Positions 7,595 to 25,581 of a stretch of DNA of 64,000 nt are shown here, in pieces. This DNA is from an uncultured Acidobacteriota bacterium. GTDB lineage: Bacteria; Acidobacteriota; Thermoanaerobaculia; UBA5066; DATFVB01. Location of the stretch: assembly GCA_963813155.1 (NCBI GenBank), contig CAWEYG010000003.1:928001-992000 (forward strand), in the 5' to 3' direction. A model generated the notes under the pieces. That model searched no databases. It saw nothing but the letters and a program-made list of their open reading frames with translations, and was not told the DNA's origin. Positions within the stretch are counted from its first letter, which is position 1; every line of letters begins with the position of its first letter. Both the position numbers and the translations under genes were made by a program.

Positions 7595-8326
7595 TCAGTA
7601 TCCGAGCGCTCTGGGCACGAAGGTTCCCAGGAGATAGCCGCCGCCTCCGGTGAATGCTCCAACGGCGAGGACCTCGATCGCGCTTCGCACAAGGTTGATT
7701 TTTGCCAGCTGCCCTCGAACGCATCCAATGCCGGCCAGCACGAGAAAGGTCAATCCGACCGAGACGGGAAGGGCCGCGTGGACCGGAAGGAGAAAATACG
7801 GCAAGAGCGGGACGAGCGAGCCGATGAGATACGACGTGCCGATGGTGATCCCTTCGGCGATCTGAACGGTTTTCGGCTCGGAGTCGATCCCGAGCTCTTT
7901 TTCCATCATCGTCCTCGCAAAAGCGGTGGGACTCGCCTGAAGTTTTCCCGCGATCAGTTGGGCGTCTGCTTTTTGCACCCCTTCGTTCTCGAAAAGAAGC
8001 GCGAGCTCCTCCCGCTCGTATTCAGGATTTTCCCGGATGCTGCGGTGTTCTGCCTGGATTTCCGACTGCTGGACCTGCGCTTCGGCACGGTTCGAGAGAA
8101 ACTCGCCGGCTCCCATCGAGAGCGCCCCGGCGAACGCTTCCGCGAGGCCGGCGGCGATGACGGCCCGGATGCTCCCGGTGCCCCCCGCCATGGCACTGAC
8201 AACCCCGAGCGGGACCAATAACCCGTCCATTGAGCCGAAAACGAATTGCCGAATCCGGCCTCGACGTTCGACCCGAGCCCTTTCGCCGAGAATCTTTCTC
8301 TTCTCGGCGGCTGATATCTCCGCCAT
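7595..8326 (-). CDS. VIT1/CCC1 family iron/manganese transporter
   Basis: VFGSMDGL, AGALSMGAGEFLS, Glu-rich metal-binding region, GSLVPLLPY. Confidence 0.9.
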   Translation of the reverse strand: MAEISAAEKRKILGERARVERRGRIRQFVFGSMDGLLVPLGVVSAMAGGTGSIRAVIAAGLAEAFAGALSMGAGEFLSNRAEAQVQQSEIQAEHRSIRENPEYEREELALLFENEGVQKADAQLIAGKLQASPTAFARTMMEKELGIDSEPKTVQIAEGITIGTSYLIGSLVPLLPYFLLPVHAALPVSVGLTFLVLAGIGCVRGQLAKINLVRSAIEVLAVGAFTGGGGYLLGTFVPRALGY

Positions 8327-8379
8327 GTTCATCCCCCGTTCAAGACAGTCCATTTCACACCCGGCGCGGAAACGCGCCT

Positions 8380-8395
8380 CGATGTATTTGCATCA
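8380..8395 (+). promoter_or_regulatory. candidate regulator box CGATG-TATTTG-CATCA, followed by -10 TATGGT (8418-8423)
   Basis: Near-palindrome that recurs in island intergenic regions; 22 nt gap to the -10-like hexamer. Confidence 0.55.
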
Positions 8396-8442
8396 GGCAA
8401 GGGCAGGACGGCGTGGCTATGGTCGGAGGCGGAGGAAACGCC

Positions 8443-9702
8443 ATGATGTCAGCCGTCGAGCTCGAGATCGAGCTCTTTTGCCGCGGAATTCGCGTTCGTC
8501 TGGAGGATCTCCGGGGCGAGGACGCCCGCCGCATCGCGCGGACAAGAGCCGGCCTCGGCTCGGGTCTCGAGCTCGTGATCCCGAACCGGAAAAAGAAGAT
8601 ATGGGTCAACGTTCCCGTCGCCGAGCCGTTCGCCGGGAAATCGCCGTTCCTCCTGGTCACGACGGGGAAGGTCCCGTTCGTCCACGACGAGCGGAACGGA
8701 GCCGAGTATCCCGTCGAAATCCCTTCTGAGCCGGCCTGGTACTCGCGAAGCACTGCTTCCGGGGTCGAAATGAGCCGAATCGGCGTGCTACAGGGGAACT
8801 ATCTCGGCATTTACGTTTCCAACGCGTGCCTCTACTGGGCCTCGAGCCCTTCCCGCGCGTGCAAGTTCTGCACGACGGGAAGAAACCTCGGGGTCTCGGA
8901 ACAATCGCGAAAGAAGGTCGAAGACGTCGTCGAGGTGGCCCGAGCGGCTCGGAAAGAATCCGGCTCGATTTTCACCCACTTCAACACCGGCTACCACTAC
9001 GAAGAGGTCGACCGGCTCGAGCCCATCCACGGCCTCCGGCAGGCGGAACCGTTCGTTCGCGCCGTTCGTCGGGAGGTCGGTGGATTCATCGGAGTGCAGG
9101 CGCATCCGGTGCCCCGTCGCAAGTTCGGCGAGTATGACGCGTTGATCGAGGCCGGCACGGACCACTTCTCGTTCTGCTATGAATTCGAAGACCCGGAAAC
9201 GTTTGCGCGGCTGTGCCCCGGCAAGGCGCAGACCGTCGGCCAGAAGGGTTTCTTCGAAGCGATGGAGTACACGGCGGCCGCGCTCGGCCGCGGACGCGTG
9301 TCGGGGGAGATCATCGCGGGTCCCGAGTCGATCGACGCGACCAAGCGCGGCATCGACCGGATCGTCGACGCGGGAGCTTTCCCGACCGTCTGCATCTTCC
9401 GCCCGACGCTCGGGAGCGAAATGGAGAACGTTCCGCCGCCGGATCCCGAGGCGATGAAAGAAGTCTTCGCATACCTGTATTCCGCCTGCCGCCGCGCCGG
9501 ACTGCCGATCGGCATCCTCCCGATCGAAGTTTCCCTCGTCGTTCAGCCGGAGGAGGCCGTCGAGCTCGTCAAAGACGGATTTTCGACGCGAGTGTACGAG
9601 GCAAAGCTTTCGTTGATTCGGACCCTCGCGAAGCCCTACATCGCTTGGAAGACGAGGCTCCGCGCTGCGTCGAGCCCTCGAGCTAATTCCCCGGCCTCCT
9701 GA
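8443..9702 (+). CDS. radical SAM protein with expanded CX10CX2C motif (MSMEG_0568-like)
   Basis: CLYWASSPSRACKFC; RTRAGLGSG; CPGK; FRPTLGS; GGAGGA RBS before ATG 8443. Confidence 0.8.
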   Translation: MMSAVELEIELFCRGIRVRLEDLRGEDARRIARTRAGLGSGLELVIPNRKKKIWVNVPVAEPFAGKSPFLLVTTGKVPFVHDERNGAEYPVEIPSEPAWYSRSTASGVEMSRIGVLQGNYLGIYVSNACLYWASSPSRACKFCTTGRNLGVSEQSRKKVEDVVEVARAARKESGSIFTHFNTGYHYEEVDRLEPIHGLRQAEPFVRAVRREVGGFIGVQAHPVPRRKFGEYDALIEAGTDHFSFCYEFEDPETFARLCPGKAQTVGQKGFFEAMEYTAAALGRGRVSGEIIAGPESIDATKRGIDRIVDAGAFPTVCIFRPTLGSEMENVPPPDPEAMKEVFAYLYSACRRAGLPIGILPIEVSLVVQPEEAVELVKDGFSTRVYEAKLSLIRTLAKPYIAWKTRLRAASSPRANSPAS

Positions 9703-10132
9703 GCGTCCTCATGTAACGCACGACTTCCAGGATCTGGCGATCCGAAAGTGTGCGTCCGTACGGAGGCATAAGCGGAGAAAGGCCGATGCCGTTGCCACCG
9801 CGTCGGACCGCGTCCTCGAGCTGCTCGTCGAGGCGGCTCTTCTGGAACGCGGGGTCCGAGAGATCCTTTGGCTTCGGATCGAGGTTGAACGCATTGAAGC
9901 CGTCGCCCGCCCCGGTCTCGCCATGGCAGGTCTGGCAGTAGTAGGCAAAGACCATTTTCGCCAGCCGCAGCTCGTAGGAGGCCGAAGGGGCGGGGGATGG
10001 GGCCTCGGGGCTCTGCAGGTTGTTCGCGACGTTGGCAGCCACGTTTTTCGAGACCCGCGCGCCGACCGACCGCCGGCCGCATCCGGAGCCGGAAATCAGG
10101 ATGAGCGCGGCCGCGAGAAGTCGCGCCTTCAT
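9683..10132 (-). CDS. lipoprotein monoheme class I cytochrome c
   Basis: Signal peptide with lipobox GSGC, CQTCH, distal Met in LMPPY; overlaps the octaheme gene stop. Confidence 0.85.
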   Translation of the reverse strand: MKARLLAAALILISGSGCGRRSVGARVSKNVAANVANNLQSPEAPSPAPSASYELRLAKMVFAYYCQTCHGETGAGDGFNAFNLDPKPKDLSDPAFQKSRLDEQLEDAVRRGGNGIGLSPLMPPYGRTLSDRQILEVVRYMRTLRRPGN

Positions 10133-12132
10133 TTCGAAGCCTGCGCCGCGGCCGTCGGGGGAAGGCTCTCGAGGTACGACGTGATCCTCAGCGCGTCTGT
10201 GTCGGACAGGCCGTAGTTCGGGCAACGGACGTCGGCCCTCCAGCGTTGCGGCCCCTTCATCCAGTAGTAGACCCACCCCGGCCGGAGCCGCTTCGGGGTA
10301 TCCGTGAGAGGGGGTCCGACGTACCCGCCCGAAGCCCCGAGGATGTGGCAGCCCCGGCAACCGAGAGTGATGTAGAGACGCGATCCCTCGGAGGCGTCCG
10401 AGTCGCCCGCCGGCCGGCCGGCGAAGGGGTCCTCGGCGATCGCGGGATCGACGTAGAAATTCTGGATCGCGTCGGCGAGCAGCGCGGCCTGCTCGCGCGT
10501 GATCCGGAGCGACGGCATCCGTTCTTCGAGGATCGGGCGCAGCGTGTACGGCGCCGCGAGGTAGTCGACGAGCCACTCTCGTTTCACCTTGCTTCCCTCG
10601 AAGGTCAGAGGCGCCGTCGAGATGTCCTCGCCCCGGTCGCCAATCCGGTGGCAGGAGAGACAGCGGTAGCTTTCGACGAGCTTGCCGATCTGCCCGCCCG
10701 GGAGGAGGGCCGGCGCCGCCGTCGATTCCACGCGATAGCGTTCGGGAGGCGGCTCGGAGCCGAGCGAGAGAAGCGCCGTGACGACTGCGCGCGCATCCTC
10801 CGCATTCAAGCCGTAAGACGGCATCTTCAGACCCTGCGCGAAGGACCGGGGCGCGTCGATTTTCGCCGCGAGCCAGGCGGGAAGCGTCCTCGGAATGTCG
10901 GTTCGGCGCCCGAAGTCCAGGGACGAAGCCTTCTTGTCGCCAATCCCAGCGAGGTCCGGGCCGAACTTCTCGCCCCGGCCCGAAACCGACGGGTCATGGC
11001 ACGAGAGACATCCGGAAGTCCGAAAGACCTTCTCGCCCTTCTCGGCGAGAGTTTGATTGACCCGGATCGGCTCGAGGACGTTGGCCGGAGCTTCGAAATC
11101 GCGAAAGTCCTGCTCGAGGTAGGCCACGACATCGCGCGATTCGGCCTCGGAGAAGTTGAAGCGGGGCATCCGCGTCCTCGGATTGAACGCCTGGGGATTG
11201 CGGAGGAAGGCGAGCAGCCACCCGCGGGTCGCCGCGGTGGCGACGTGCGAGAGCTCCGGCGCCGCGCCCTTTCCTTTTCCTTCCACGGTATGGCAGGTGA
11301 TGCAGCGCGATTCGGAAAAGAGCTTCTTTCCGGCCGCGGGATCGCCCGGGGCCTCCTGTTCCGCGGCCCGAATCTGTCGCGCGAGCAGGTCGGGAGCGGC
11401 GAGACTGAACACATAGTGCGCCAGCTCCTCGACGCTGTCGCCCGCCAGATGGAAGTTCGGCATCGTGGCATTGGGATCGACGCCATGCGGGTCCCTGAGC
11501 CACTGGCGCAGCCAGATCCCTCCCGTTTTCATCGACTCCGCCGCGAGCGGCGGGGCTTCGGACACGAAATCTCCGTGACCGGGAACCGAGTGGCAGGCAT
11601 AGCAGCCCTTCCGGGCCATCAGCTCGCGGCCGCGGGAGAGGGTCGGCGCCTCCGGCACGGCCGCGGTGAAATGGCAACGGCCGCATCCTCCTTCGAGAAA
11701 GGAAAGGGGCAGCATCGGCGGCCCGGCGTCCCGCGCGGTCCCGTGGGCGTCCTCGAGATCGGTTGCGAGCCCCTGCCCTCCGTGGCACGACGTGCAGCCG
11801 AATCGGTCGAAATCTGCGGGCGTGTGGGCGGTTCGGGAATGAAAACCGTACGGTTCGGGAGCGCCGGCCAAGACCGCGTCGGCCGCCCCGAGGTGGCAGG
11901 TCGTGCACCTGTCCACGCGATCGTTGAAGTCGCGCAGCCAGAATTGCTGAATGGCCACCGGACGGCTCGAATACTCGCGCGCCGACTTGAGGTTTTTCGC
12001 CCGGGACGCCGCGAGCGCGAAATAACGGCGCTGAATCCCGCGATACGGCCGCAGGACGTTCTTGACCGGCGAGACCGCGAGGACCGCGAGGAAGATCACG
12101 CTGGTCGCGGCGAAGATTCGTCGGAGCGGCAC
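10129..12132 (-). CDS. membrane-anchored octaheme cytochrome c (Rieske/cytb-associated)
   Basis: N-terminal hydrophobic anchor; 8 CxxCH (CTTCH, CTSCH, CGRCH, CYACH, CITCH, CLSCH x2, CRGCH); repeated MP distal-ligand motifs. Confidence 0.9.
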   Translation of the reverse strand: MPLRRIFAATSVIFLAVLAVSPVKNVLRPYRGIQRRYFALAASRAKNLKSAREYSSRPVAIQQFWLRDFNDRVDRCTTCHLGAADAVLAGAPEPYGFHSRTAHTPADFDRFGCTSCHGGQGLATDLEDAHGTARDAGPPMLPLSFLEGGCGRCHFTAAVPEAPTLSRGRELMARKGCYACHSVPGHGDFVSEAPPLAAESMKTGGIWLRQWLRDPHGVDPNATMPNFHLAGDSVEELAHYVFSLAAPDLLARQIRAAEQEAPGDPAAGKKLFSESRCITCHTVEGKGKGAAPELSHVATAATRGWLLAFLRNPQAFNPRTRMPRFNFSEAESRDVVAYLEQDFRDFEAPANVLEPIRVNQTLAEKGEKVFRTSGCLSCHDPSVSGRGEKFGPDLAGIGDKKASSLDFGRRTDIPRTLPAWLAAKIDAPRSFAQGLKMPSYGLNAEDARAVVTALLSLGSEPPPERYRVESTAAPALLPGGQIGKLVESYRCLSCHRIGDRGEDISTAPLTFEGSKVKREWLVDYLAAPYTLRPILEERMPSLRITREQAALLADAIQNFYVDPAIAEDPFAGRPAGDSDASEGSRLYITLGCRGCHILGASGGYVGPPLTDTPKRLRPGWVYYWMKGPQRWRADVRCPNYGLSDTDALRITSYLESLPPTAAAQASK

Positions 12133-12141
12133 GTTTCCTCC

Positions 12142-12846
12142 CTAGAACCCGGTTCCCGCGTTCCAGGGCCAGACGAACGACCAGCCGGGGCCGCGAAAGA
12201 AAGTCCCGATGGCCGTGAGGATCGTGGCGATCATCACGAACCAGGTCATGATCCATTCGGGCAGCGTCACGCCCGAGAGAACGCGCCGGAGGCGGCCCCC
12301 CTGCTCCCCTCCGCGCGCGGCGAACATCGCGGCCGCGACGAGAACCGTGGGCACCACGACCGGCCAGCAACCTGAGGCTCCGAAGGCCACGACAAGTGCT
12401 CCGGTGGCGGCGACCAGCGCGATCGCCTGCTTCCTGCCTTTTCCAGCCCAGAGCGGGCCCGCCGTCAGGTTGATCCGGGCATAGGGAATGACGACGAGGG
12501 AGATCACGACGAGAGCCGGCAGCAGAACGCCGGCGACGATCGGCGGAAAATAGTGGAGAAGCTCCTGAAGTCCGAGAAAGTACCAGGGGGCCTTCGCGGG
12601 ATTCGGCGTCTCGAGCGGATTGGCGATTCCTTCCAGCGGCGCGTCGAACGCGAATGCCGCGACTGCTAGCGCGATTACCACGACCTGGAACAGGATGATC
12701 TCGCGAAGGATCAGGTGGGGAAAGGTCATCACGTATCGCTCGTCGTCCCGGCGGACGGCCGGCCGCATCTGCGGGTTCAGGAGCGCGACCCGGATCGGAA
12801 CGGCGAGCGGGTCGTTGGATTCGACGAGGTCGATCTCGCGGCTCAT
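12142..12846 (-). CDS. Rieske/cytb complex subunit IV (C-terminal half of split cytochrome b)
   Basis: [32 protein letters not shown] (PEWY-equivalent), FFRGPGW. Confidence 0.88.
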
Positions 12847-13628
12847 GGAAGATCCTCCTCTCGTAGCTCATCTTCCGGCGGGCCGCCGTCTTCTTCGGGG
12901 GGACCCTGCACCCCGCCGTCCTTGCGGACTCGCCAAACGTGAACCGAGACGAACAGGAGCAGCGCAACCGGAAGCACGACGCAGTGGAGGACGTAGAAGC
13001 GGAGCAGGGCGTTTTCCGACACGACGTTTCCGCCCAGCAGCAGGAAGCGAACCTTGTCGCCGATGAAAGGCGCCTGTTTCGCCATGTTCGTCCCGACCGA
13101 GACGCCCCAGAAGGCGAGCTGGTCCCACGGCAGGAGATAGCCCGTGTACGAGAGAAGAAGAGTCAGGATCAGGAGGACGACGCCGATGACCCAGTTGAAT
13201 TGGCGCGGCGGCCGATAGGCCCGGTGGTAGAAGACGCGGAGCATGTGGAGAATCGCCGCGAAGACCATCGCGTGCGCGGCCCATCGGTGGAGGTTTCTCA
13301 GGAAGAGCCCGTTGTCCACGACGTAGTGGAGCTCTTTCATGTCCTTGTAGGCCTGGGGAACGGAGGGATGATAGTAGAACATCAGCAGGACGCCCGTCGC
13401 GACGAGAATGGCCGAGCAGGCGAGCGCGATTCCCCCGAGCCAGTAGGTGTGCCGGAAGAGGAGGGTCTTTTCGCGGACCTTGACCGGATGAACGTGGAGA
13501 AACAGGTTCCCGAAGATGATGAGCGATCGGTTCAGGTTCGTGTCGGCTACGCCGTGCCGCACGATCGAGCGATAGACCGAAGTCTCGCGAATTCTGCGCC
13601 AGAGCATTTCCATCGTCGATTCCTTCAT
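12843..13628 (-). CDS. cytochrome b6-like N-terminal subunit of Rieske/cytb complex
   Basis: RNLHRWAAH...[18 protein letters not shown]-x14-H (b6-type spacing); ATG 13628 overlaps the Rieske stop. Confidence 0.92.
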
Positions 13629-14080
13629 GCTTTGAACAGCTTTCCGTGCGGAATCACGATGCTCGTGTCGACCAGGAGATTCCCCGCCGCGTCGGAAGTC
13701 ACCTCGAGCCAGGGAAGCGGACGGGGAGCGGGGCCGTGGGAGACGTTGCCCTCCAGATCGAAGCGGCTCCCGTGGCAGGGGCAGGCGATCGCTCCCTCGT
13801 CGGAAACGAATCGCGTAATGCAGCCGAGATGCGTGCAAACGGCGGAAAGGGCGTAGATCCCGCCCGGCCCCCCAATGACGTAGGCCTTCTGCTCCTTGTT
13901 GAAACGGACCGTGCCTTCCGGATAGTCGCCCGAGCCTCCCGCGCGAAACGTGGTCGGCGGTTCGAACAGGACCTTCGGCTTGAGGTAGTCGAGCGTCACC
14001 ACGCCGGAACCGAGCGCAGCCGCCGCGCAAGCGCCGACTCCGATGCGAGCGAGAAAGTCCCGCCGGCTCGACTCGTCCAT
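13625..14080 (-). CDS. Rieske [2Fe-2S] protein
   Basis: Tat motif SRRDFL, CTHLGC and [15 protein letters not shown]; alternative TTG start at 14116. Confidence 0.93.
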
Positions 14081-14108
14081 CTCGCGCAGATTCGGATCTC
14101 TCGCGCCG

Positions 14109-15938
14109 TCAGGCAACAGCGTCCCCCTTCCTCCCAAAACTCTGCATCGTGATCGTTCCGGCCGGACACCGGGCGGCGCACAGGCCGCAGCGAATGCAGA
14201 CGGTCTCGTCCTTCAGAAAAATCGCCCCCTCGCGCCGGCCCTCGATGACGATCGGCGCGATTTCGCGCGCGGCCGGCGACCCTCGCCGGATTAAGGCCTG
14301 CGGAAGGATCTCGATGCAGTTCTCCGGGCAGATGTCCTGGCATCCGCCGCAGAGGATGCATTCCGTTCCCTGGGAGGCGCTCTCTTCGAAGATCGTGTTC
14401 GTCCAGCAATGGAGGCAGCGGGAGCCCTCGAGCCGAGCCTGCTTCTCGGAAAAGCACTCCTCGACCTCCGCGATTCCGATCCGGCGGGCGATCGGCCGGG
14501 TCGGAGGCTTCTGGCGCGGGAGGCCCTCGAAATCCAGAGGTTTGGCATAGCGGCCATGGACGTCGATCTCGACCTCGATCTCGGGCTCGTTGCGCGGACG
14601 GCCGCGCAGGAATTCGTCGATCGACCGCGCCGCCTTCTTTCCGTCCGCGATCGCGTTGATCGCGATCCGGGGACCGAACGCCGCGTCGCCGCCGGTGTAC
14701 ACGCCCGGCGCCGTCGTCGCGAGCGTGTCGGGGTTCATCGTGATCCGGCCCCCTTTGATCGCAATACCGTCTTCCGGGCGGAGAAACGAGAAGTCACCCG
14801 TCTGGCCGATCGCCATGATCGCGGTATCGGCCTCCAAAACGGTTTCCGAACCCTCCAGAAATTGAGGTGAAAAACGGCCAGACTCGTCGAAAACCCGCGA
14901 GACCTTCCGGAATTCGATTCCCGTCAGGCCGGACGGTCCGCCGAGAAAACGGCTGGGCCCGAGCCGATGTCGGAAACGAATCCCCTCCGAGGAAGCCTCT
15001 TCGATCTCGTCGCCGGCGGCGGGCATCTCCGCCTCGGATTCGAGGCAGCAGACCGTCACCTCGCGGGCGCCGAACCGGACGGCGCTCCTGGCGACGTCGA
15101 GCGCCTGCACGATCGACAGATTGCGCTCCGTGTTGACCTGCTCCCCGGCCCGGGCCGCCGTGCGGGCGACGTCGAGGGCGACGTTGCCGCCGCCGATCAC
15201 GACGACGCGCCGGCCCATTTCGAGCTTGTAGCCGAGGTTGATGTTCAAGAGATAGTCGATCCCCCGGAGCACGCCGTCGAGTTCGACGCCCGGGATCGTC
15301 AGGTCCCGGCTCCGCATCGCCCCCACGCCGAGAAAGACGGACCGAAATCCCTGCGCCTGCAGGTCCGAGATCGTGAAGTCGGTCCCCAGTCTGGTGTTGG
15401 TCTTCAGCTCGACGCCCAGGGAAAGGATCGCGTTGATCTCGAGCTGGATGATCGCCCGCGGCAAGCGATACTCGGGCACGCCGAGGCGGAGCATGCCCCC
15501 GGCCACGGGAGCTCCTTCGAAGATCGTCACCGGATACCCCATGATCGCCAGGTCATGCGCGCACGCGAGGCCCGCCGGGCCCGATCCGATCACCGCGACT
15601 TTCTCCGCATAGCGGTCACGTCGGGCTCCGAAGATCTCCGTCAGTACCGAAAAGTCCATCATGCTTTCGACACCGAACTTTTCCGTGACGAAGCGCTTGA
15701 GGGCGCGGATCGAGATCGGAGCGTCGAGCTCCCCCCTTCGGCAGACGCTCTCGCAGGGCGCCGCGCAGATCCTTCCGCAGATCGAGGCGAGCGGGTTGGG
15801 CTTTCGAGCCACCGCGTAGGCTTCCCGGAACTTCCCCTGCGCGATCAGGGCCACATACTTCCCCGCTTCGGTGTGGACCGGGCAGGCCCACTTGCAGGGA
15901 AAGTTCCGTTCCAGCCATTCGACGTTGACGCCGGTCAC
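14109..15938 (-). CDS. GltD/NfnB-like FAD/NAD(P)-binding oxidoreductase with C-terminal 2x[4Fe-4S] ferredoxin domain
   Basis: PCKWACPVH, CGRICAAPCESVC, GSGPAG, GGMLRLGVPEYRLP, GGGNVA, RCLHC, CILCGGCQDICP, CIRCGLCAARCP; GTG at 15938. Confidence 0.9.
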   Translation of the reverse strand: MTGVNVEWLERNFPCKWACPVHTEAGKYVALIAQGKFREAYAVARKPNPLASICGRICAAPCESVCRRGELDAPISIRALKRFVTEKFGVESMMDFSVLTEIFGARRDRYAEKVAVIGSGPAGLACAHDLAIMGYPVTIFEGAPVAGGMLRLGVPEYRLPRAIIQLEINAILSLGVELKTNTRLGTDFTISDLQAQGFRSVFLGVGAMRSRDLTIPGVELDGVLRGIDYLLNINLGYKLEMGRRVVVIGGGNVALDVARTAARAGEQVNTERNLSIVQALDVARSAVRFGAREVTVCCLESEAEMPAAGDEIEEASSEGIRFRHRLGPSRFLGGPSGLTGIEFRKVSRVFDESGRFSPQFLEGSETVLEADTAIMAIGQTGDFSFLRPEDGIAIKGGRITMNPDTLATTAPGVYTGGDAAFGPRIAINAIADGKKAARSIDEFLRGRPRNEPEIEVEIDVHGRYAKPLDFEGLPRQKPPTRPIARRIGIAEVEECFSEKQARLEGSRCLHCWTNTIFEESASQGTECILCGGCQDICPENCIEILPQALIRRGSPAAREIAPIVIEGRREGAIFLKDETVCIRCGLCAARCPAGTITMQSFGRKGDAVA

Positions 15939-15949
15939 ACGATGTCCCG

Positions 15950-17299
15950 TCAGAACACGAATCTCGCCAGGACGTACAGGGTATTGTTGTCGCTCGCATT
16001 GCGCCCGGAACCGTCGTAATTCGTCTTCGCGCCGTTGAACTTCGTATAGACCGTGTACTGCGCGGCGAGCTGGCAGTTCTGAACCGGCCACCAGGATACG
16101 TTCGCGATGTAACCCGAGCTGTTCGGGCTGCCGGTCGCGCTTCCGCTGAGATCCGCCGGGGCGAAGAGAAGCGTGTCCGGAGTCCCGGTGACGTTGAACA
16201 AGCCGATTCCTGCCGAGTAGCGGTTCCCCAGATGGTAGTTGGCGCTGGCCGCCACCGAGCTCAGGTGGTGCTTCTCCCGATCGGCACCGCCCTGGTCGAA
16301 GCTCCCGGTCAGGGTCGAATTCTCGCGGATGTATGTCCCGCGCAGCGAGAGAACGTCCGTTCGGAACAGCGTTTGGTCGTATTGCGTGTCTGCTCCCCAA
16401 TCGGTGAACTCGTCCTCGGGGCCCGAGACGGAATTCGGGTTGGACTTCACGCGCATGCCGAAGCCTCCGACCTCCAGGAAATTGTTTCCCGCGATCGTCT
16501 GCTGCCACGCGACCCGCCAGTAGGGAGCGACACCGCGAATGTTGACGGCAAAGCCCTCGCCCGACGTCGGGGCAGGACTCCCCACGTGATCCGAGCGGTA
16601 GAGCGTTCCCGCGAGGTAGAGATGGTCATCCCACATCGCATAAGCACCGAGGCCCGCCACATCCTGGCCGAGACTCGCGATGATCGGAGCCGCTGTCGGG
16701 GTCGGTGCGGAGTCGCTCGCCATGAACGGATAGCCCCAGGCCGGTGTCGTGTTCCAGAGATCCTCGACGGTCGGATTGTTGTTGAGCGTCAAACCGTAAA
16801 CGAGCTCTTTGCCTCCCATCTTCGTCAAGTTGGCATAGCGCACGTCGCTATTGTCGATGCTGAAGTGATCGTCCTGCTTGGTGTAGGTCACCTGCACGAA
16901 GCTGCCAATGTGCGTCGTCCAGGCGCCGGAAAGAAAGAGCGAGATGTCCTGCGGGAATTCGACGTTCCCATTCTGCGTGCCGGGTTGAGTCTTGTTTGTG
17001 TGCGTGTAAGAGGTTTCCAACCACGCGGAAAGAGGAAGGGTCTTGAGCAGGTTGAGGCCGGCATGGGTTTCCTTCGGCTCGTTTACGACCGCTGGCGTCT
17101 CCTGGGCGCGGTCCGTGTAGCCCAGCAGCTTGAACCGCCGGCCAGCGCTGTTGAGCTCGGGAGGAGTGGTATGGCAGCCGTTACACGCAAGTCCCGTCTG
17201 TCGAGCGAAGCTCGGGACAGATTGCGCGGTCGAGCGAAACAAGACGGCGACGGCAAAGGACACGGCGACGACGAACAGGAACGAATAGCGGTTCTTCAT
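15950..17299 (-). CDS. cyc2: Cyc2-type monoheme cytochrome-porin fusion (outer membrane)
   Basis: Signal peptide, then SVPSFARQTGLACNGCHTTPPELNSAGRRFKLLGY, matching the Cyc2 signature (PxFARQT, CxxCH, PxL, GRxFK); beta-strand-rich remainder; C-terminal Phe. Confidence 0.88.
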   Translation of the reverse strand: MKNRYSFLFVVAVSFAVAVLFRSTAQSVPSFARQTGLACNGCHTTPPELNSAGRRFKLLGYTDRAQETPAVVNEPKETHAGLNLLKTLPLSAWLETSYTHTNKTQPGTQNGNVEFPQDISLFLSGAWTTHIGSFVQVTYTKQDDHFSIDNSDVRYANLTKMGGKELVYGLTLNNNPTVEDLWNTTPAWGYPFMASDSAPTPTAAPIIASLGQDVAGLGAYAMWDDHLYLAGTLYRSDHVGSPAPTSGEGFAVNIRGVAPYWRVAWQQTIAGNNFLEVGGFGMRVKSNPNSVSGPEDEFTDWGADTQYDQTLFRTDVLSLRGTYIRENSTLTGSFDQGGADREKHHLSSVAASANYHLGNRYSAGIGLFNVTGTPDTLLFAPADLSGSATGSPNSSGYIANVSWWPVQNCQLAAQYTVYTKFNGAKTNYDGSGRNASDNNTLYVLARFVF

Positions 17300-17301
17300 C
17301 T

Positions 17302-17877
17302 CTACCTCGCGATTTCAAAGTCCGCCGTCGTGGCGCCTTTCACCGTGACGGCCTTCTGGGTTCCTTTCGCTTTCGGATGCCAGACCTTGACCGTGTAAGC
17401 ACCATCGGGAACGTCGGCAATCCGGAACGAACCGTCCGCCTTTGTGACCGCAAAATACGGAGTCGGAACCGCTGCGACAAAGCCTTCCATCTCGGGATGG
17501 ACCTTGCAGAGGAGTGTGGCGACGCACTCTTTCTTGAACGTGTAGCTCTTGGTCTGCCCCTTGGGCCACGTGCCGAGATTGAACTTGTCGGCGCAGGCAT
17601 CCGGGGAGTACACGTTGTGCAGGACGGCGTCGGAATTGAGAAAATCCACGGTCGTTCCGACGAGCACTGGGACGACGTGCGGACTGAAGATCAGGTTCGC
17701 CTGGTCCATCTTCGCGTGAGCGGTCGGCGCGGGAAACGTCTTCCCCGACTCGACGGCGTAAACCACCGCGTCGGCGCTGTCGCGGGTCCCCTTCACCTTC
17801 ACTTTTCCCTGGATCTCACCCGCGAGAAGGGGTGCGCCAACGCTCAGAATCACTACTGCGATCAAATTATTCTTCAT
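17302..17877 (-). CDS. secreted cupredoxin-like protein with carboxypeptidase-regulatory-like domain
   Basis: Signal peptide; HNVYS...CKVHPEM gives type-1 Cu ligands His/Cys/His/Met; GAYTVKVWHP; AAGGAG RBS. Confidence 0.82.
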   Translation of the reverse strand: MKNNLIAVVILSVGAPLLAGEIQGKVKVKGTRDSADAVVYAVESGKTFPAPTAHAKMDQANLIFSPHVVPVLVGTTVDFLNSDAVLHNVYSPDACADKFNLGTWPKGQTKSYTFKKECVATLLCKVHPEMEGFVAAVPTPYFAVTKADGSFRIADVPDGAYTVKVWHPKAKGTQKAVTVKGATTADFEIAR

Positions 17878-17959
17878 TGAGACCAACTCCTTTCAACACC
17901 ACAGATTCTGTCGCCCCGGGAGGTCCGATCCCATCCCGCAAGCTCACCGAATTACGTAG

Positions 17960-18652
17960 TTAAACCTCACCAGGCAAGAGGATGCGTTTCTGGAACGCGA
18001 AGGCGACTGCCTCGGCCTTCGAGTGGAGCTCGAGCTTGTCGAGGATGTTCTGGATGTGGTTGCGTGCCGTCAGGTGCGAGATATGGAGCCGATCCGCGAT
18101 CTCGGGCGTTGCCCGGCCGGCCGCGAGCATGCCGAGCACTTCGACTTCACGGGCCGTGAGCTTCCGGGCACGAGCGTCGGGCGACTCCCGGACGACGGAG
18201 AGCATCGATCGCGGCGGTATGGCAGGTTCTTCCGAGTCCTTCGGCTCCCTCCGGTCGGAGAGCTGAGGTTGAAGGATATGAGCGAGATAGAAGCGATCGG
18301 GAGGCCCGGATCCGACATTGAGGATGCTCACGTCCGCGACGATGCTCGCGCCTCCCTTCGCTTGGAGAGTCAGGCCGAAATGTCGGACAGGCTCGCCGCG
18401 GAAGGCCATCTGCGTGACCGGACAGGTCTCGGCGCAGTAGCGGTTCCCGTGGACGTCGCTGCCCTCCAACATCCCGGCGCAGCTGGCCCCCAGGGCTTCC
18501 TCCTCGCTGTAACCGAAGAGGTGCTCTGCGCTGTGGTTCCAGAAAACGATCCGGTTGCGCCGGTCGGTGGCGAAAACGGGCTCGGGCGAATGCTCGAGCG
18601 CCGAGAAAAGAGCGGCGACGTCGCCCGGGAGCTGAGCGGTGCCGAACCTCAT
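17960..18652 (-). CDS. PAS domain + LuxR/NarL HTH transcriptional regulator
   Basis: IVFWNHSAEHLFGY (PAS), C-x14-C-x3-C, LTAREVEVL...IADRLHIS..TARNH. Confidence 0.9.
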   Translation of the reverse strand: MRFGTAQLPGDVAALFSALEHSPEPVFATDRRNRIVFWNHSAEHLFGYSEEEALGASCAGMLEGSDVHGNRYCAETCPVTQMAFRGEPVRHFGLTLQAKGGASIVADVSILNVGSGPPDRFYLAHILQPQLSDRREPKDSEEPAIPPRSMLSVVRESPDARARKLTAREVEVLGMLAAGRATPEIADRLHISHLTARNHIQNILDKLELHSKAEAVAFAFQKRILLPGEV

Positions 18653-19038
18653 CCGATTTTCGCGTTCTTGTTCAGGATCTCCCGGCAAAATCCTTCGAGC
18701 TCCTGATTCGTGAACTCGTTCCAGCCGTCGCAGGTGTCGTGCTCGCGCAGCTGTGCGTCGCAGGAGAGCGGAACGCGGTCCACGATCTGGCGCGCGAGCT
18801 GCCACTTGTTGGCGAGGTCCTCGATCTCCTCCCGGCTCGCCTTCGGGTTCCGGCGAGTGAGCCAGTCATGACGGTCGCGGAACTCCTCGTCCGAAAGGCG
18901 GCGAAATCCCCGGCAGAAGACGCCTTTCTCGGTCGCGACCTGACACATCGAGTGTTCGTCGTCCGTCATCGCGAGCAGGGTCTCGCGCAAGCGGCGAATC
19001 GCTTCGGCGCGCGATATCGAAGTTGTGATTGGCCCCAT
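18649..19038 (-). CDS. Cys/His-containing hypothetical protein coupled to the PAS-LuxR gene
   Basis: 129 aa ORF with GAGG RBS and ATGA overlap; HSMC, FCRGF, SCD, HDTCDGW. Confidence 0.7.
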   Translation of the reverse strand: MGPITTSISRAEAIRRLRETLLAMTDDEHSMCQVATEKGVFCRGFRRLSDEEFRDRHDWLTRRNPKASREEIEDLANKWQLARQIVDRVPLSCDAQLREHDTCDGWNEFTNQELEGFCREILNKNAKIG

Positions 19039-19107
19039 AAAAACCTCCTCGGCTCGAAGGAACGCTGTTCCCGTCTTCGATGATGCGAGAGGCCTGGCAC
19101 GGGGGCA

Positions 19108-19123
19108 TGATGTGAACTCATCA
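19108..19123. promoter_or_regulatory. perfect palindromic box TGATG-TGAACT-CATCA, with a second copy TGATGCGTTTGCAGGA at 19138-19153
   Basis: Lies in the divergent intergenic region between the Cys-rich/PAS-LuxR genes and the USP gene. Confidence 0.65.
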
Positions 19124-19187
19124 AATGTCTCCGAAACTGATGCGTTTGCAGGAGGCGCCCGCGATCGGATCGCGCGACGATCGCGTC

Positions 19188-20126
19188 ATGAACGAAGAAC
19201 CGAAAATCCGCGTATTGCTCCCCATGGTGCCGGAAGAGGCGACCGCCAACGTCGGTCGGCTCGTTCGCGCGTTTTTCCGCCCCGACCTGGCCGTGCTTCG
19301 GCCCTTCTACGCCGCGCGCCCGCTGCAGGCGGAAGTCTTCCTTCCCGAAGCGTCGGCGGCTCTGCCGGAGCTCTACCGTCTCGACCTCGAGGCAAGGCTG
19401 GCCGCCGGAGATCAGCTGAAGAAGGCGGTGGCTCCTCTGGCCGAGGCGGGCTACACGACGGAGCCGGACGTCGTCTCGGCAGCGCCGATCGAGGCGGTCA
19501 TGAACGAGATCGGGGCCTGGCGCGCCGATATGACCGTCCTCCGGACGAGCCGGGTCTCGCGGCAGGAAGGCCGAATCGGACACATGACGTCGAGCCTCGC
19601 GCGAAGCGCGAGCTGCCCCATTCTGACGTACCGCGACGTTCCCGAATCGTACCGGGTGAGAAGAGTCCTCATCGCGACGGATTTCTCGGAAAGCTCGCGG
19701 GCGAGCGCCGACTGGGGAATGGCCATGGCGGAACTGGCGCAGGCCGAAGCGCACCTGCTCTACGTCGTCGCGCGGCACGGAACGCGAAAGCTCGACTCCG
19801 CGCTCGTGCTCAGGGAAGGGACCGACGAAATCGCCCGCTGGAGGAAGCGGATAAATCCCGCGTTTCCCCGCCCGTTGACCGACGCCCACGTGATCTCGGC
19901 CGAATACCCGGCGGAGGGAATTCTGAACTTTGCGACGGATTCCGCGTTCGACCTGGTCGTTCTCGCCGGCACGGGCCGGACGGCCCTGGGCGGGATGCTC
20001 CTCGGCTCCAACGCCCGGGCAGTCGTCCGCTGGAGCGATCGCCCGGTGCTCCTTGTCCCCAATTCGAACCGTATTTCGGCAGCCTTGGTCCTCGGAAAGA
20101 TGCTCGTCGGTGTCTCGAGCCGCTGA
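19188..20126 (+). CDS. tandem universal stress protein (USP)
   Basis: RVLIATDFSESS, DLVVLAGTGR, LLGSNARAVVR..PVLLV; start could be further upstream (19125/19140). Confidence 0.88.
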   Translation: MNEEPKIRVLLPMVPEEATANVGRLVRAFFRPDLAVLRPFYAARPLQAEVFLPEASAALPELYRLDLEARLAAGDQLKKAVAPLAEAGYTTEPDVVSAAPIEAVMNEIGAWRADMTVLRTSRVSRQEGRIGHMTSSLARSASCPILTYRDVPESYRVRRVLIATDFSESSRASADWGMAMAELAQAEAHLLYVVARHGTRKLDSALVLREGTDEIARWRKRINPAFPRPLTDAHVISAEYPAEGILNFATDSAFDLVVLAGTGRTALGGMLLGSNARAVVRWSDRPVLLVPNSNRISAALVLGKMLVGVSSR

Positions 20127-20131
20127 GCCCC

Positions 20132-20147
20132 TAATTCATTCGCATCA
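20132..20147 (+). promoter_or_regulatory. candidate regulator box TAATT-CATTCG-CATCA
   Basis: Right half-site CATCA conserved; left half TAATT is the same as in the 34599 site. Confidence 0.4.
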
Positions 20148-20182
20148 TGACTCCGGGCAGCACGAGCGAGGAAGATCCCATT

Positions 20183-20707
20183 ATGAGAGCTCTTCGAATC
20201 GTTTCTCGTCTGGGACTCCTGGCACTCACCCTGAACGCCTGCTCGACGCTCCGGATCGCCGTGGATTACGACAAGTCGGTCGATTTCGCGAAATACCGGA
20301 CCTACAAATGGATCGAGAACGCGCCTCCGCCGGAAAACGCATTGGTGATGAAGAGATTCCGCGCGGTGATCGAGCACCGGCTGGTCGCGAAGGGCTTCAC
20401 GAAGTCCGATCGCCCGGATCTGCTGATCGCGCTTCAGACGCATCGAGCTCTGGAAACTGTCTTTCGAACCGATGTTGAGCGCTGGGGTTACGGACCGGGA
20501 TGGTGGAGGGGAAACATCGCCTTTACGCGGCCCGAACAGATCCCCGTCGGGACCCTCGTCCTCGATCTCGTCGACGCCCGCTCCAACGAGCTGGTCTGGC
20601 GGGGAGTCGCGCGTCGCCTGATCGATCCCGAGGCGTCCTCTGAAAAAAGAGACCGCCACGCTGAAGAAACGATCGATCGGCTCCTCGAGAACTTCCCGCC
20701 GCGATGA
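20183..20707 (+). CDS. DUF4136-type lipoprotein
   Basis: Lipobox LNAC; DYD..VDFAKYRTYKW; GTLVLDLVDARSNELVWRG. Confidence 0.85.
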   Translation: MRALRIVSRLGLLALTLNACSTLRIAVDYDKSVDFAKYRTYKWIENAPPPENALVMKRFRAVIEHRLVAKGFTKSDRPDLLIALQTHRALETVFRTDVERWGYGPGWWRGNIAFTRPEQIPVGTLVLDLVDARSNELVWRGVARRLIDPEASSEKRDRHAEETIDRLLENFPPR

Positions 20708-21027
20708 CGGTCGCCGTTCAGCCCTCGCGATGCTCAGTCGCCTTGATGAAAGCGGATCTGAACCCGGTGCACGCCAACATCCTCCTCGCCTGCCCTGGCT
20801 GCGGTCATTCGACCGGACTCCTCACGCTCCATCCCTCCTGGCGCTGCGCCCGATGCCGGGTGCACTGGCAATTGAAAATGTGCCGGCACTGCCACCGGCA
20901 TCTCGCGATGGGAGAGGACGGCCCCTTCTGTACGGACGGGCTCCGGCGCGGGACAGGCCGCGCGGCAACGGCTTCGCCCACCGCTCACGACAAGGTGTTG
21001 CAACAAGCTAAACGCTTGCGATCTTGA
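20704..21027 (+). CDS. small Cys-rich (zinc-ribbon-like) hypothetical protein
   Basis: CPGC, CARC, CRHC pairs; ATGA overlap with the upstream gene. Confidence 0.45.
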   Translation: MTVAVQPSRCSVALMKADLNPVHANILLACPGCGHSTGLLTLHPSWRCARCRVHWQLKMCRHCHRHLAMGEDGPFCTDGLRRGTGRAATASPTAHDKVLQQAKRLRS

Positions 21028-21061
21028 GAAAACTCAGTTTGACCCAGAAGGAGAGTTCGTC

Positions 21062-21454
21062 ATGAAAGGTTTTGTGGAAGACATCGAGAGTCTCGCTGTC
21101 ACAAACGGTGAGTTTCGCCGGGTGCTTTACACGGCAAAGCACTGCCAGCTCGTCCTCATGTCGCTAAAACCCAAGGAAGAGATCGGGGCGGAAGTCCACC
21201 ATCTCGACCAGTTCTTTCGCGTGGAGGAAGGAAGCGGTCAGGCGATTCTCGATGGCGTTCGGACGGCGATCCGAGCGGGCTTCGCGGTCGTCGTTCCGGC
21301 CGGAGCGAATCACAACATCATCAATACCGGCAGCGTTCCGCTGAAGCTCTACACGCTCTACGCGCGCCCAAATCATCGCGACGGCGTCGTCCACCATACG
21401 CGCGACGACGCGGAAGCCGACAACGAGCACTTCGACGGCAGGACCACAGAATAG
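21062..21454 (+). CDS. cupin domain protein
   Basis: FRRVLYT, EIGAEVH..DQFFRVEEG, VPAGANHNIIN; AGGAG RBS. Confidence 0.9.
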   Translation: MKGFVEDIESLAVTNGEFRRVLYTAKHCQLVLMSLKPKEEIGAEVHHLDQFFRVEEGSGQAILDGVRTAIRAGFAVVVPAGANHNIINTGSVPLKLYTLYARPNHRDGVVHHTRDDAEADNEHFDGRTTE

Positions 21455-21615
21455 AGAGCCAAATCGGGCGACCGCCTCCACGGCGGACCGCAGGAGGCGC
21501 AACCCACCGGGCGGCCGAGGACCGATCGATGCCCTGGGGTGTGAGACCGGCGAAGCTGTGAGAAATCGGTCGGTGGATCGCGGGCTCCCGCGAGGGGCGT
21601 CTCTTGCCGAACTCG

Positions 21616-22062
21616 TTAACGGGGAGAGCCCGATTTTCTCCGCGGTCCGCGCCCTTTCATGATCCACCTTTTCGATTTCGTGACCGGGCGCTCCGCGCCC
21701 TTACCGATCAACGTCAACAAATCGGTCGTCGTCACGATACCGACGAGCTTGCCGTTCTCAACGACCGGAAGGCTGCCGATCGATCGCCCTCGCATCAGGT
21801 TTGCGGCTTCCCGGAGCGTCGTTTCCTTTCGCGCGGTCACGACCGACGAGGTCATCACGTCGGCAACCGTCCGGTTCTTCCGATACTCGGGATCAGCGAA
21901 ACCGCCCATGTCGCGGTCGGAGAGAATCCCCACGATTTCCGAACCGCGTGTGACGACCAGATGGTGGATTCGACTCTGTGTCAGCCGGTTCCATGCCTGT
22001 TCCGCCGACATCCCGGCATCGACGGTCTCGACCTTCTTGTTCATGACCTCTTCGAGTCTCAT
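21616..22062 (-). CDS. CBS domain pair protein
   Basis: IHHLVV...GILSDRD and IGSLPVV...GIVTTTDL. Confidence 0.88.
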   Translation of the reverse strand: MRLEEVMNKKVETVDAGMSAEQAWNRLTQSRIHHLVVTRGSEIVGILSDRDMGGFADPEYRKNRTVADVMTSSVVTARKETTLREAANLMRGRSIGSLPVVENGKLVGIVTTTDLLTLIGKGAERPVTKSKRWIMKGRGPRRKSGSPR

Positions 22063-22155
22063 TCCTCGCGCTCCCTTCCGTATGGAATTCCCTGTATATT
22101 CAAAGACCTTGGAAACACATTCGGAATCGCCTTTCGAGAACAAGCGGGAGGCCCG

Positions 22156-24812: not shown

Positions 24813-25581
<769 letters not shown>

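Follow-up and report, generated by a model that had tools for sequence, protein, structure and literature searches.

The 64,000-nucleotide (nt) stretch of an uncultured acidobacterial genome analyzed here (the window; contig CAWEYG010000003.1, positions 928,001 to 992,000) holds, at 9683-17877 on the minus strand, a compact cluster of eight co-oriented genes, whose spacers measure at most 28 nt and of whose junctions three are ATGA overlaps. Read 5' to 3', the genes encode a cupredoxin, a Cyc2-type cytochrome-porin, a GltD/NfnB-like flavo-iron-sulfur (FeS) protein, a Rieske protein, a cytochrome b6, a subunit IV, an octaheme cytochrome c and a monoheme lipoprotein cytochrome c. An earlier interpretation made from the letters of the DNA alone (hereafter, the sequence-only reading) had described this order, with genes overlapping or lying less than 30 nt apart, and the coordinates and the common minus strand bore it out; each of its gene identifications was likewise upheld by Pfam or NCBIfam matches, motifs and fold. 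Judged from its sequence, the cluster encodes a Rieske/cytochrome b complex that is b6f-like and of a type described in anaerobic ammonium-oxidizing (anammox) bacteria, together with a cupredoxin, a lipoprotein cytochrome c and a protein of the Cyc2 family, and it probably links iron chemistry at the cell surface to the quinone and nicotinamide adenine dinucleotide (phosphate), NAD(P), pools. The eight genes, with the lengths of their products in amino acids (aa), are:

17302-17877, minus strand: cupredoxin, first gene, ATG at 17877, stop at 17302, 191 aa
15950-17299, minus strand: Cyc2-like cytochrome-porin, ATG at 17299, stop at 15950, 449 aa, 2-nt spacer to the cupredoxin gene
14109-15938, minus strand: flavoprotein, GTG at 15938, stop at 14109, 609 aa, 11-nt spacer to the Cyc2 gene
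13625-14080, minus strand: Rieske protein, ATG at 14080, stop at 13625, 151 aa, 28-nt spacer to the flavoprotein gene
12843-13628, minus strand: cytochrome b6, ATG at 13628, stop at 12843, 261 aa, ATGA overlap with the Rieske gene
12142-12846, minus strand: subunit IV, ATG at 12846, stop at 12142, 234 aa, ATGA overlap with the cytochrome b6 gene
10129-12132, minus strand: octaheme cytochrome c, GTG at 12132, stop at 10129, 667 aa, 9-nt spacer, start preceded by GGGAGG
9683-10132, minus strand: monoheme lipoprotein cytochrome c, ATG at 10132, stop at 9683, 149 aa, ATGA overlap with the octaheme cytochrome c gene

An alternative start of the Rieske gene, TTG at 14137, would make it overlap the flavoprotein gene. 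Scanning 9300-18300 for consensus promoters and terminators returned 2 promoter-like and 8 terminator-like sites, which is no better than shuffled sequence (0.7 and 7.4, respectively).

The proteins of the cluster

The second gene encodes, by its motifs, its length and its modeled fold, a fused monoheme cytochrome-porin of the Cyc2 family, located in the outer membrane. Membership was judged by the criteria of Keffer et al. 2021 (PMC8406198), because no curated model or solved structure matches the protein, which found no counterpart in Pfam, in NCBIfam or among PDB sequences (the last at E<=10). An N-terminal hydrophobic segment at residues 7-25 is signal-like by hydropathy alone, no dedicated predictor being involved, and the sole CXXCH motif lies at residue 39. 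Upstream of it, residues 29-35 read PSFARQT, in agreement with the screening form PXFAR[Q/K][T/Y]; in the full motif, AXPXFAR[Q/K][T/Y], the leading Ala, kept by all 80 relatives compared, is replaced by Ser in the window. Three residues separate this upstream motif from the CXXCH Cys, where the text of PMC8406198 says five, although the counting convention may differ. Downstream, P47-E48-L49 forms a PXL motif that begins 4 residues past His43 of the CXXCH. Since the genome scan that yielded the relatives was seeded with a PXFAR-type Cyc2 motif, the conservation of that motif across the 80 loci is circular; the PXL motif was absent from the scan pattern, and P47 is kept in 78 of 81 sequences and E48 and L49 in all 81. 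The length of 449 aa lies above the Cyc2 minimum of 365 aa, and the AlphaFold2 model (predicted local distance difference test, pLDDT, 91; predicted template modeling score, pTM, 0.87) shows 16 long strands across residues 90-448. Foldseek matched this model to 16-strand porins, including OprP (2o4v) and OprO (4rjw), which are the templates named by the authors of the Cyc2 family (PMC8406198).

In a protein atlas, the Cyc2-like protein falls with unnamed "cytochrome c family" clusters whose members are labeled "cytochrome C" or "hypothetical protein", and its family is large, with 6079 matches among 8000 scored candidates and 2623 cluster representatives at E<=1e-3. Among the relatives, identity along the whole porin is 52-68%, and the median of 60% over 52 distant loci is above that of every other gene of the cluster; the porin domain of the Cyc2 family has been described as poorly conserved (PMC8406198). 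Leptospirillum Cyt572 is stated to derive from homologs in Acidobacteria and Nitrospira that form a dense network cluster (PMC10654088), a statement that gives a lead towards cluster 3 for the window protein. The signal peptide, the single N-terminal CXXCH, both flanking motifs and the OprO/OprP-like 16-strand porin are shared with Acidithiobacillus ferrooxidans Cyc2, Mariprofundus Cyc2PV-1 and Leptospirillum Cyt572, whereas the genomic partner in the window is a Rieske/cytochrome b/flavoprotein complex and not an oxidase operon.

The first gene encodes a protein recognizable as a periplasmic type-1 copper protein with an N-terminal signal peptide, in which the cupredoxin domain is modeled as nested in a CarboxypepD_reg-like beta-sandwich. 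Pfam places Copper-bind at residues 54-134 (24.2 bits, cut-off 21.2) and CarboxypepD_reg at residues 139-188, and the AlphaFold2 model (pLDDT 93) matches the folds of amicyanin, plastocyanin, pseudoazurin and the Nitrosopumilus cupredoxin 5fc9, with target-normalized template modeling (TM) scores of 0.72-0.82 for amicyanin, plastocyanin and 5fc9. The copper ligands H87, C124, H127 and M130 show no variation among 55 sequences, nor in a 47-row alignment that includes remote copies. The parallel with rusticyanin drawn in the sequence-only reading had to be abandoned, since no rusticyanin occurs among the PDB sequence matches at E<=1 or among the 50 fold matches listed, the best being 5fc9, amicyanins and plastocyanins. 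NCBIfam gave weak matches to amicyanin and halocyanin only, and the protein is weakly of the amicyanin/plastocyanin type instead.

The third gene encodes, according to its domains, a cytoplasmic GltD/NfnB-like FeS protein that binds flavin adenine dinucleotide (FAD) and NAD(P) and carries an extra C-terminal 2x[4Fe-4S] ferredoxin domain. Pfam recognizes Fer4_20 (13-88), Pyr_redox_2 (113-433) and Fer4_7 (527-594); the protein has 21 Cys and is without signal peptide or hydrophobic segment. Its closest PDB relatives are 9bov, NfnA 9n5u, 8oh5, NfnI 5jca and GltD, and the best NCBIfam model, NF009410, scores 438.6 bits, under its cut-off of 516. A complex prediction that combined cytochrome b, subunit IV and residues 445-609 of the flavoprotein gave scores of 0.13 and 0.23 against a mark of 0.32 and, made without controls, speaks neither for nor against binding.

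The Rieske protein (Pfam Rieske, 45.5 bits) has a twin-arginine translocation (TAT) signal (TIGR01409) and an N-terminal membrane anchor. Its best PDB matches, the top two of 79 at E<=0.001, are 9rk4 (E 3.6e-21) and 9rk3 (E 2.7e-17), that is, Kuste4569 and Kustd1480, the Rieske subunits of two Kuenenia complexes (PMC12954380), which substantiates the comparison with anammox Rieske/cytochrome b clusters made in the sequence-only reading. All 58 sequences compared keep the cluster ligands and Ser105; the Ser of CPCHGS, a potential-raising residue, occurs also in Kuste4569 and Kustd1480. At the Rieske Tyr position stands a Phe, as in Kustd1480 and in 57 of 58 relatives, and for Kustd1480 a potential of +335 mV has been measured (PMC12954380).

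Cytochrome b (Pfam Cytochrome_B, 148 bits) is a four-helix protein of the b6 type, with cytochromes b6 as its best PDB matches (E 4.7e-42) and four heme-ligand His that align with those of b6 and never vary among 59 sequences. Opposite b6 Cys35, which we take to be the ligand of heme cn, the window has Trp63; the 59 sequences show Tyr at this position in 53 cases and Trp in 5, with one gap and no Cys at all. Ahead of the first helix, the N-terminal stretch contains His45, found in 58 of 59 sequences (the other one has a gap), and in the Kuenenia models two N-terminal histidines of the dimeric cytochrome b have an extra heme b between them. His45 is a candidate ligand for any heme or cluster that would bridge heme bN and the first [4Fe-4S] cluster. 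Subunit IV (Pfam Cytochrom_B_C, 25.7 bits) is longer than its b6f counterpart, with additional hydrophobic segments, and its quinol-site motif is APWY in 57 of 57 sequences. Both cytochrome b and subunit IV are polytopic by hydropathy.

The octaheme cytochrome c has an N-terminal hydrophobic anchor and 8 CXXCH motifs, four of them in an N-terminal part and the others in four class-I cytochrome c domains that come after it (Pfam Cytochrom_C, 131 bits; Cytochrome_CBB3; weak multiheme families), and all 8 motifs are kept in 52 of 53 homologs of relatives. In two relatives (L049:6304-9057 and L067:5255-8008), subunit IV and the octaheme cytochrome c lie in one frame without a stop between them, explicable by a natural fusion of the genes or by the loss of a stop; this read-through hints that the two proteins may be physically joined subunits. 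The product of the last gene is a class-I cytochrome c with one CXXCH (Pfam Cytochrome_CBB3, 40.3 bits) and is probably a lipoprotein, as its signal-like N-terminus ends in a Cys; it matches the model of Leptospirillum cytochrome 579 weakly (30.7 bits, cut-off 280). By hydropathy and motif counts, the predicted topology of the parts fits a trans-envelope layout.

Conservation of the cluster among relatives

Species-representative genomes were scanned with an alignment of 50 Cyc2 sequences, and the best 80 of at least 587 confirmed stretches were analyzed, the eight window proteins being compared with these 80 loci by tblastn. Named Acidobacteriota lineages account for 74 of the loci, mostly metagenome-assembled genomes of Terriglobia, with Granulicella, Terracidiphilus and Acidobacterium among the names, and the remaining 6 belong to Binatia (2), Dormiibacterota, Limnocylindrales, Gammaproteobacteria and Verrucomicrobiia. 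In 55 of the 80 loci, cyc2 has as same-strand neighbors the genes for the flavoprotein, the Rieske protein, cytochrome b, subunit IV and the octaheme cytochrome c, and a cupredoxin-type gene is present in 60 of the 80; in all 80 loci, every gene detected shares its strand with cyc2. The sequence-only reading had named a lack of synteny of cyc2 and the cupredoxin gene with the Rieske/cytochrome b genes in relatives as the observation that should overturn it, and what the relatives hold is that very synteny. The cluster is common in Acidobacteriota and not special to the window.

The gene order varies among the 55 full loci: cyc2 is followed by the cupredoxin and flavoprotein genes in 39, it is placed after the last gene in 15, and in a single locus from Binatia it precedes a monoheme cytochrome c gene and then the flavoprotein gene, while the order of the window, with the cupredoxin gene ahead of cyc2, was found in none of the 80 loci. 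Three loci without the full set are broken by contig ends and are consistent with it, and one full-length locus (L034) has the set minus the flavoprotein only. A different arrangement occurs in 7 loci (L056, L066, L071, L072, L076, L077 and L079; e.g., L072:8995-13915), where cyc2 precedes the genes for a monoheme cytochrome c, for a different Rieske protein and for a fusion of cytochrome b with subunit IV and a C-terminal cytochrome c, without flavoprotein and without cupredoxin; a Crp/FNR-type regulator gene stands upstream of cyc2 in L072.

Besides, 7 loci show cyc2 with a cupredoxin-type gene only, and 7 others show cyc2 alone, 4 of them with short flanks. In six loci (L053, L058, L061, L062, L064 and L065; e.g., L061:9878-14657), cyc2 is followed by the gene of a remote cupredoxin/CarboxypepD_reg protein, 25-30% identical and with the four copper ligands kept; in L061 a PAS-GAF sigma-54 activator comes next after the cupredoxin gene and universal stress proteins lie on both sides. 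Cyc2 and the cupredoxin look like a minimal conserved pair. The linkage of cyc2 to the remainder is kept in at least three gene orders, which argues for selection on the linkage, beyond descent alone.

Over the 52 distant full loci, the median identity to the window is 58% for cytochrome b, 52% for the flavoprotein, 48% for the cupredoxin, 45% for subunit IV, 43% for the Rieske protein, 35% for the octaheme cytochrome c and 30% for the monoheme cytochrome c. The three closest loci (L003, L009 and L045) reach 62-84% in the Rieske/cytochrome b genes. A separate history of the window cyc2, considered for its lower identity to these three loci than that of the other genes, was dropped: in a quick tree it groups with L003 and L009 with a support of 0.998, and the cyc2 of L045 groups away from them.

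The flanks of the relatives' clusters are heterogeneous. None of the 130 flanking open reading frames (ORFs) scanned, out of 192, encodes a subunit of a heme-copper oxidase, and no oxidase gene is linked to the cluster in the window. In L008 (6512-7732), L041 (362-1108), L042 (8012-9244) and L020 (19617-20654), the cluster has phage-type integrase or IS110 transposase genes in its flanks, a possible hint of mobility. In L048 (8459-9769), a fragment of a [NiFe]-hydrogenase large subunit and a maturation protease lie directly upstream, possibly hinting at an electron donor at the quinone level.

Known systems and the direction of electron flow

The Kuenenia complexes are composed of a b6-like cytochrome b, a subunit IV, a cytochrome c with six or eight hemes and a putative NAD(P) oxidoreductase, and quinol bifurcation that yields NAD(P)H has been suggested for them (PMC12954380). 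Compared by description, the window cluster resembles Kustd1480-1485/Kuste4569-4574 in having a b6-like four-helix cytochrome b with subunit IV and Rieske protein, a multiheme cytochrome c in place of cytochrome f and an NAD(P)-type flavoprotein gene in the same cluster; in addition, the solved Rieske proteins closest to its own are 9rk4 and 9rk3, with the CPCHGS Ser in common. It differs in being without an HAO-like octaheme partner, in a high-potential branch that would terminate at a cupredoxin and a Cyc2 of the outer membrane and not in nitrogen-oxide chemistry, in its missing b6 heme-cn Cys, whereas the published Kuenenia models include heme cN (PMC12954380), and in its host, an acidobacterium with an ordinary cell plan.

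The rus/petI systems of Acidithiobacillus ferrooxidans likewise comprise a Cyc2 in the outer membrane, a cupredoxin in the periplasm, c-type cytochromes and a Rieske/cytochrome b complex leading to the quinone pool. There, however, the genes form separate operons and NAD+ is reduced via complex I, while in the window a single cluster is found and a flavoprotein would take that step; moreover, the cupredoxin is rusticyanin in Acidithiobacillus and an amicyanin/plastocyanin-like protein nested in a CarboxypepD_reg domain in the window.

In Geobacter sulfurreducens, the extHIJKLMNOPQS cluster brings together the OprP-like porin ExtI, multiheme cytochromes, the Rieske protein ExtO, the cytochrome b ExtP, ExtQ and the lipoprotein cytochrome ExtS, and it is reported to be more abundant with Fe(III) (PMC5877670). 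An outer-membrane porin, periplasmic cytochromes and a Rieske protein with split cytochrome b thus occur in one cluster in both organisms. Using the NCBIfam equivalog cut-offs of NF040969, NF040970 and NF040971 for the ExtOPQS module, we found the ExtP, ExtQ and ExtS models to be the best or near-best for cytochrome b, subunit IV and the octaheme cytochrome c of the window, all below cut-off: ExtP is the nearest named family for cytochrome b, yet this protein is not a member (263.1 bits, cut-off 290), and neither subunit IV (ExtQ, 54.5 bits, cut-off 150) nor the octaheme cytochrome c (ExtS, 74.4 bits, cut-off 100) belongs to the respective family. The two clusters also differ in that ExtI is without heme, and the Cyc2-like protein matches no NCBIfam model, and in that the ext cluster, which has 10- and 12-heme cytochromes, is without flavoprotein or cupredoxin. 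An operon of Nitrospina gracilis and 'Ca. Methylomirabilis oxyfera' encodes a Rieske protein, b6 with subunit IV and an atypical octaheme cytochrome c as the only c-type subunit (PMC3578206); compared by description, it differs from the window cluster in that the available text mentions no flavoprotein, cupredoxin or Cyc2.

Each part of the window cluster is of a known kind, and the union of the parts was not found in print. Full-text searches of openly accessible articles returned no description of cyc2 adjoining a Rieske/cytochrome b/flavoprotein cluster; 'Cyc2' with 'Terriglobia' gave nothing, and 'Cyc2' with 'Acidobacteriaceae' gave one review, without a link between the two. The remark of the sequence-only reading that it knew of no such described system agrees with these searches, but the joining of an outer-membrane porin to Rieske/cytochrome b genes in one cluster has a precedent in Geobacter (PMC5877670).

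That reading had further proposed a wire from the outer surface to NAD(P)H. Parts for both halves are indeed clustered, but a linear series fails, since the branches meet at the quinol site. Both the Rieske/c-type branch and the b-heme branch to the negative (N) side begin at the quinol (Qp) site (PMC12954380; the established bc/b6f mechanism), and therefore the cluster is not a linear wire from the surface to NAD(P)+. Besides, with the Rieske center near +300 mV and NAD(P)+ at -320 mV, an electron entering at the Rieske protein cannot run on to NAD(P)+. The formation of NAD(P)H needs quinol as the donor and the periplasmic branch as the sink, and therefore flow would be outward to Cyc2.

With the identities and locations of the parts established, we infer their physical assembly, their co-transcription and the direction of flow. 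Our preference, a tentative one, is for menaquinol bifurcation with outward electron flow through Cyc2. Menaquinol would be oxidized at the quinol site on the periplasmic side, where its two electrons would part. The high-potential electron would pass from the Rieske protein to the octaheme cytochrome c, standing in for cytochrome f on the periplasmic side, then to the monoheme cytochrome c or the cupredoxin, to the heme of Cyc2 and finally to a dissolved oxidant outside, most likely Fe(III), a soluble and strong oxidant in the acidic soils and peats inhabited by the relatives. The low-potential electron would cross the membrane via the two b hemes and reach NAD(P)+ through the FeS clusters and FAD of the flavoprotein, placed on the cytoplasmic side. 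Overall, the complex would act as a quinol:extracellular-acceptor oxidoreductase in which the downhill outer leg pays for NAD(P)H without complex I.

Several observations favor outward flow. It fits the predicted topology, with a cytoplasmic flavoprotein, a Rieske protein bearing a TAT signal, an anchored octaheme cytochrome c, and a cupredoxin and a Cyc2 that bear signals. The kinship of the Rieske protein to Kuste4569 and Kustd1480 and the invariance of the cupredoxin ligands in remote copies would support it, as would the conserved linkage of cyc2 in 55 of 80 loci. The second Cyc2 context, with a simple Rieske/cytochrome bc complex in 7 loci, means that Cyc2 is repeatedly tied to a quinol-oxidizing complex, and since no heme-copper oxidase was met among the 130 flanking ORFs, no other periplasmic sink is encoded alongside. 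Support also comes from an MtrC/OmcA decaheme cluster in the window and the nearby universal stress protein, CBS, BON and PAS-LuxR genes, and, by analogy, from the Fe(III)-induced ext cluster of Geobacter. An outward chain from the quinone pool through bc1, cytochrome c and rusticyanin to Cyc2 has been proposed as the Fe(III) reductase of Acidithiobacillus, and heterotrophic Acidobacteriaceae (Acidobacterium capsulatum and Acidicapsa spp.) reduce Fe(III) at low oxygen (PMC8790237).

Other points weigh against this interpretation. Biochemical tests of Cyc2 (Acidithiobacillus, Leptospirillum Cyt572 and Mariprofundus) have all addressed Fe(II) oxidation (PMC8406198), its part as an Fe(III) reductase is a proposal only (PMC8790237), and bifurcation that produces NAD(P)H is unproven even in Kuenenia (PMC12954380). 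The missing heme cn Cys makes the route from heme bN to the first FeS cluster unclear; L034 and the seven loci with a plain bc complex mean that the flavoprotein is not obligatory for the link to Cyc2; and a heterotroph's need for quinol-derived NAD(P)H is not obvious. Moreover, the 80 loci are those most similar to the window Cyc2, so that the synteny rates describe one clade, and spacing is the sole basis for regarding the eight genes as one transcript.

The main alternative, a strong rival although somewhat less likely, is inward flow through a module for Fe(II) oxidation, in which Cyc2 would oxidize dissolved Fe(II) and the cupredoxin and the small cytochrome c would carry the electrons, mostly to an oxidase encoded elsewhere. 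For a minor share, the Rieske/cytochrome b complex would run backwards, an electron from the Rieske protein and a b-heme electron derived from NAD(P)H together reducing quinone, or else the proton-motive force would drive a reversed Q cycle, as in the petI complex of Acidithiobacillus. All characterized Cyc2 proteins oxidize Fe(II) (PMC8406198, PMC7029218), and the series Cyc2, cupredoxin, cytochrome c and bc1 is the textbook uphill branch of Acidithiobacillus (PMC13741234, PMC8790237); the faint likeness of the last gene to Leptospirillum cytochrome 579 points the same way, and the neighbors of low-oxygen type would be just as compatible with Fe(II) oxidation under microaerobic conditions. 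Backward running with the flavoprotein on the N side, however, would consume NAD(P)H and leave a lithotroph without reducing power, and an electron at the Rieske protein needs quinol chemistry to reach NAD(P)+. Neither the window nor the 130 flanking ORFs scanned in relatives showed a linked oxidase gene. The carriers, moreover, come overwhelmingly (74 of 80) from Acidobacteriota lineages that we take to be organoheterotrophs.

Quite improbable, in our estimate, is a complex that oxidizes NAD(P)H, the flavoprotein feeding electrons from NAD(P)H or ferredoxin via the b hemes to quinone on the N side, or across to the periplasmic cytochromes and Cyc2, so that the complex would serve as an overflow valve, releasing surplus reducing power to acceptors outside the cell under oxygen shortage. 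Modules of the GltD/NfnB type are reversible with NAD(P)H in solved relatives, genes of stress or low-oxygen type and a PAS regulator flank the cluster, Crp/FNR-family regulators adjoin related clusters in L043 and L072, and the missing heme cn Cys and the altered APWY motif leave space for non-canonical chemistry. Nonetheless, a wire from NAD(P)H to cytochrome c would need neither a Rieske protein nor the conserved Qp-type motif of subunit IV, and flow from NAD(P)H to quinone was judged wasteful compared with complex I by the authors of the Kuenenia study (PMC12954380).

Very improbable is mere co-location, with Cyc2 and the cupredoxin forming an independent pair for metal detoxification, copper/iron handling or redox sensing beside a respiratory Rieske/cytochrome b complex: the 7 loci in which cyc2 has just a cupredoxin-type gene and the 7 in which it stands alone would suit it, as would the variable position of cyc2 (first, second or last) and the uncertainty that the family's authors attach to function in divergent Cyc2 branches (PMC8406198), but the repeated linkage of cyc2 to Rieske/cytochrome b genes in three gene orders and with two types of complex is hard to explain without functional coupling, and all linked periplasmic proteins are one-electron carriers.

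Returning to menaquinol bifurcation with outward flow, we regard as unlikely the more specific proposition that the extracellular Fe(III)/Fe(II) couple, reached through Cyc2 and a dedicated cupredoxin, serves as the high-potential leg of quinol bifurcation, with NAD(P)H made directly on a bound flavoprotein, and that this is widespread in soil and peat Acidobacteria. If true, the Rieske/cytochrome b mechanism proposed to form NAD(P)H would have a second, non-anammox home, reducing power would be gained by a route that bypasses complex I, Cyc2 would have its first physiological role as an electron exit, and iron cycling would be connected with peatland carbon turnover via a defined gene set. 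Cyc2 is the marker gene most used for calling iron oxidizers in metagenomes, and a well-conserved Cyc2 clade in abundant soil and peat Acidobacteria has its genes tied to a quinol-oxidizing complex. If electrons exit via Cyc2, many "iron-oxidizer" calls from acidic soils would concern iron reducers, or else heterotrophs balancing their redox state. Within a phylum that is ecologically dominant in soil, the cluster is both widespread and conserved, and it offers a second, possibly cultivable lineage for testing NAD(P)H-forming bifurcation, which has so far been tied to slow-growing anammox enrichments.

Genes around the cluster

A gene for a one-component regulator ends 83 nt upstream of the cupredoxin gene. 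Its product is a candidate regulator of the cluster. Of the 80 loci, L003, L009 and L045 alone have a homolog (53-59% identity) directly upstream of the cluster. The other neighbors in the window are without counterpart in the 80 loci, save one weak match to a universal stress protein (L061). The main features outside the cluster are:

8230-9702, plus strand: variant radical-SAM protein (NF045502, 163 bits), converging on the 3' end of the cluster
17960-18805, minus strand: PAS + LuxR-type one-component regulator (Pfam PAS, GerE)
19125-20126, plus strand: tandem universal stress protein
22660-23493, minus strand: triple-BON protein
25829-26503, plus strand: second PAS-LuxR regulator, adjoining a SulP/STAS transporter (26605-28293, plus strand)
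29643-31367, minus strand: 574-aa protein without family match, possibly a barrel
31467-32687, minus strand: MtrA-like reading frame with 10 CXXCH
32399-34606, minus strand: OmcA/MtrC-family decaheme cytochrome (TIGR03507, 472 bits, cut-off 209)
38966-41149, plus strand: FdhF/YdeP-family molybdoenzyme (TIGR01701, 620 bits)
44086-45831, plus strand: DsbD-type thiol:disulfide transporter
42942-43017, 60111-60185 and 61656-61733: tRNA genes Phe-GAA, Val-TAC and Asp-GTC (Rfam)

The three reading frames between 29643 and 34606 on the minus strand form an MtrCAB-like cluster for extracellular electron transfer, about 12 kb from the eight-gene cluster. The region 17960-26503 also holds a DUF4136 protein, a cupin and a CBS-pair protein, a setting of sensor and stress genes. 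Apart from the three tRNAs, no Rfam family was matched in the window. The DsbD-type transporter would be useful for cytochrome c maturation.

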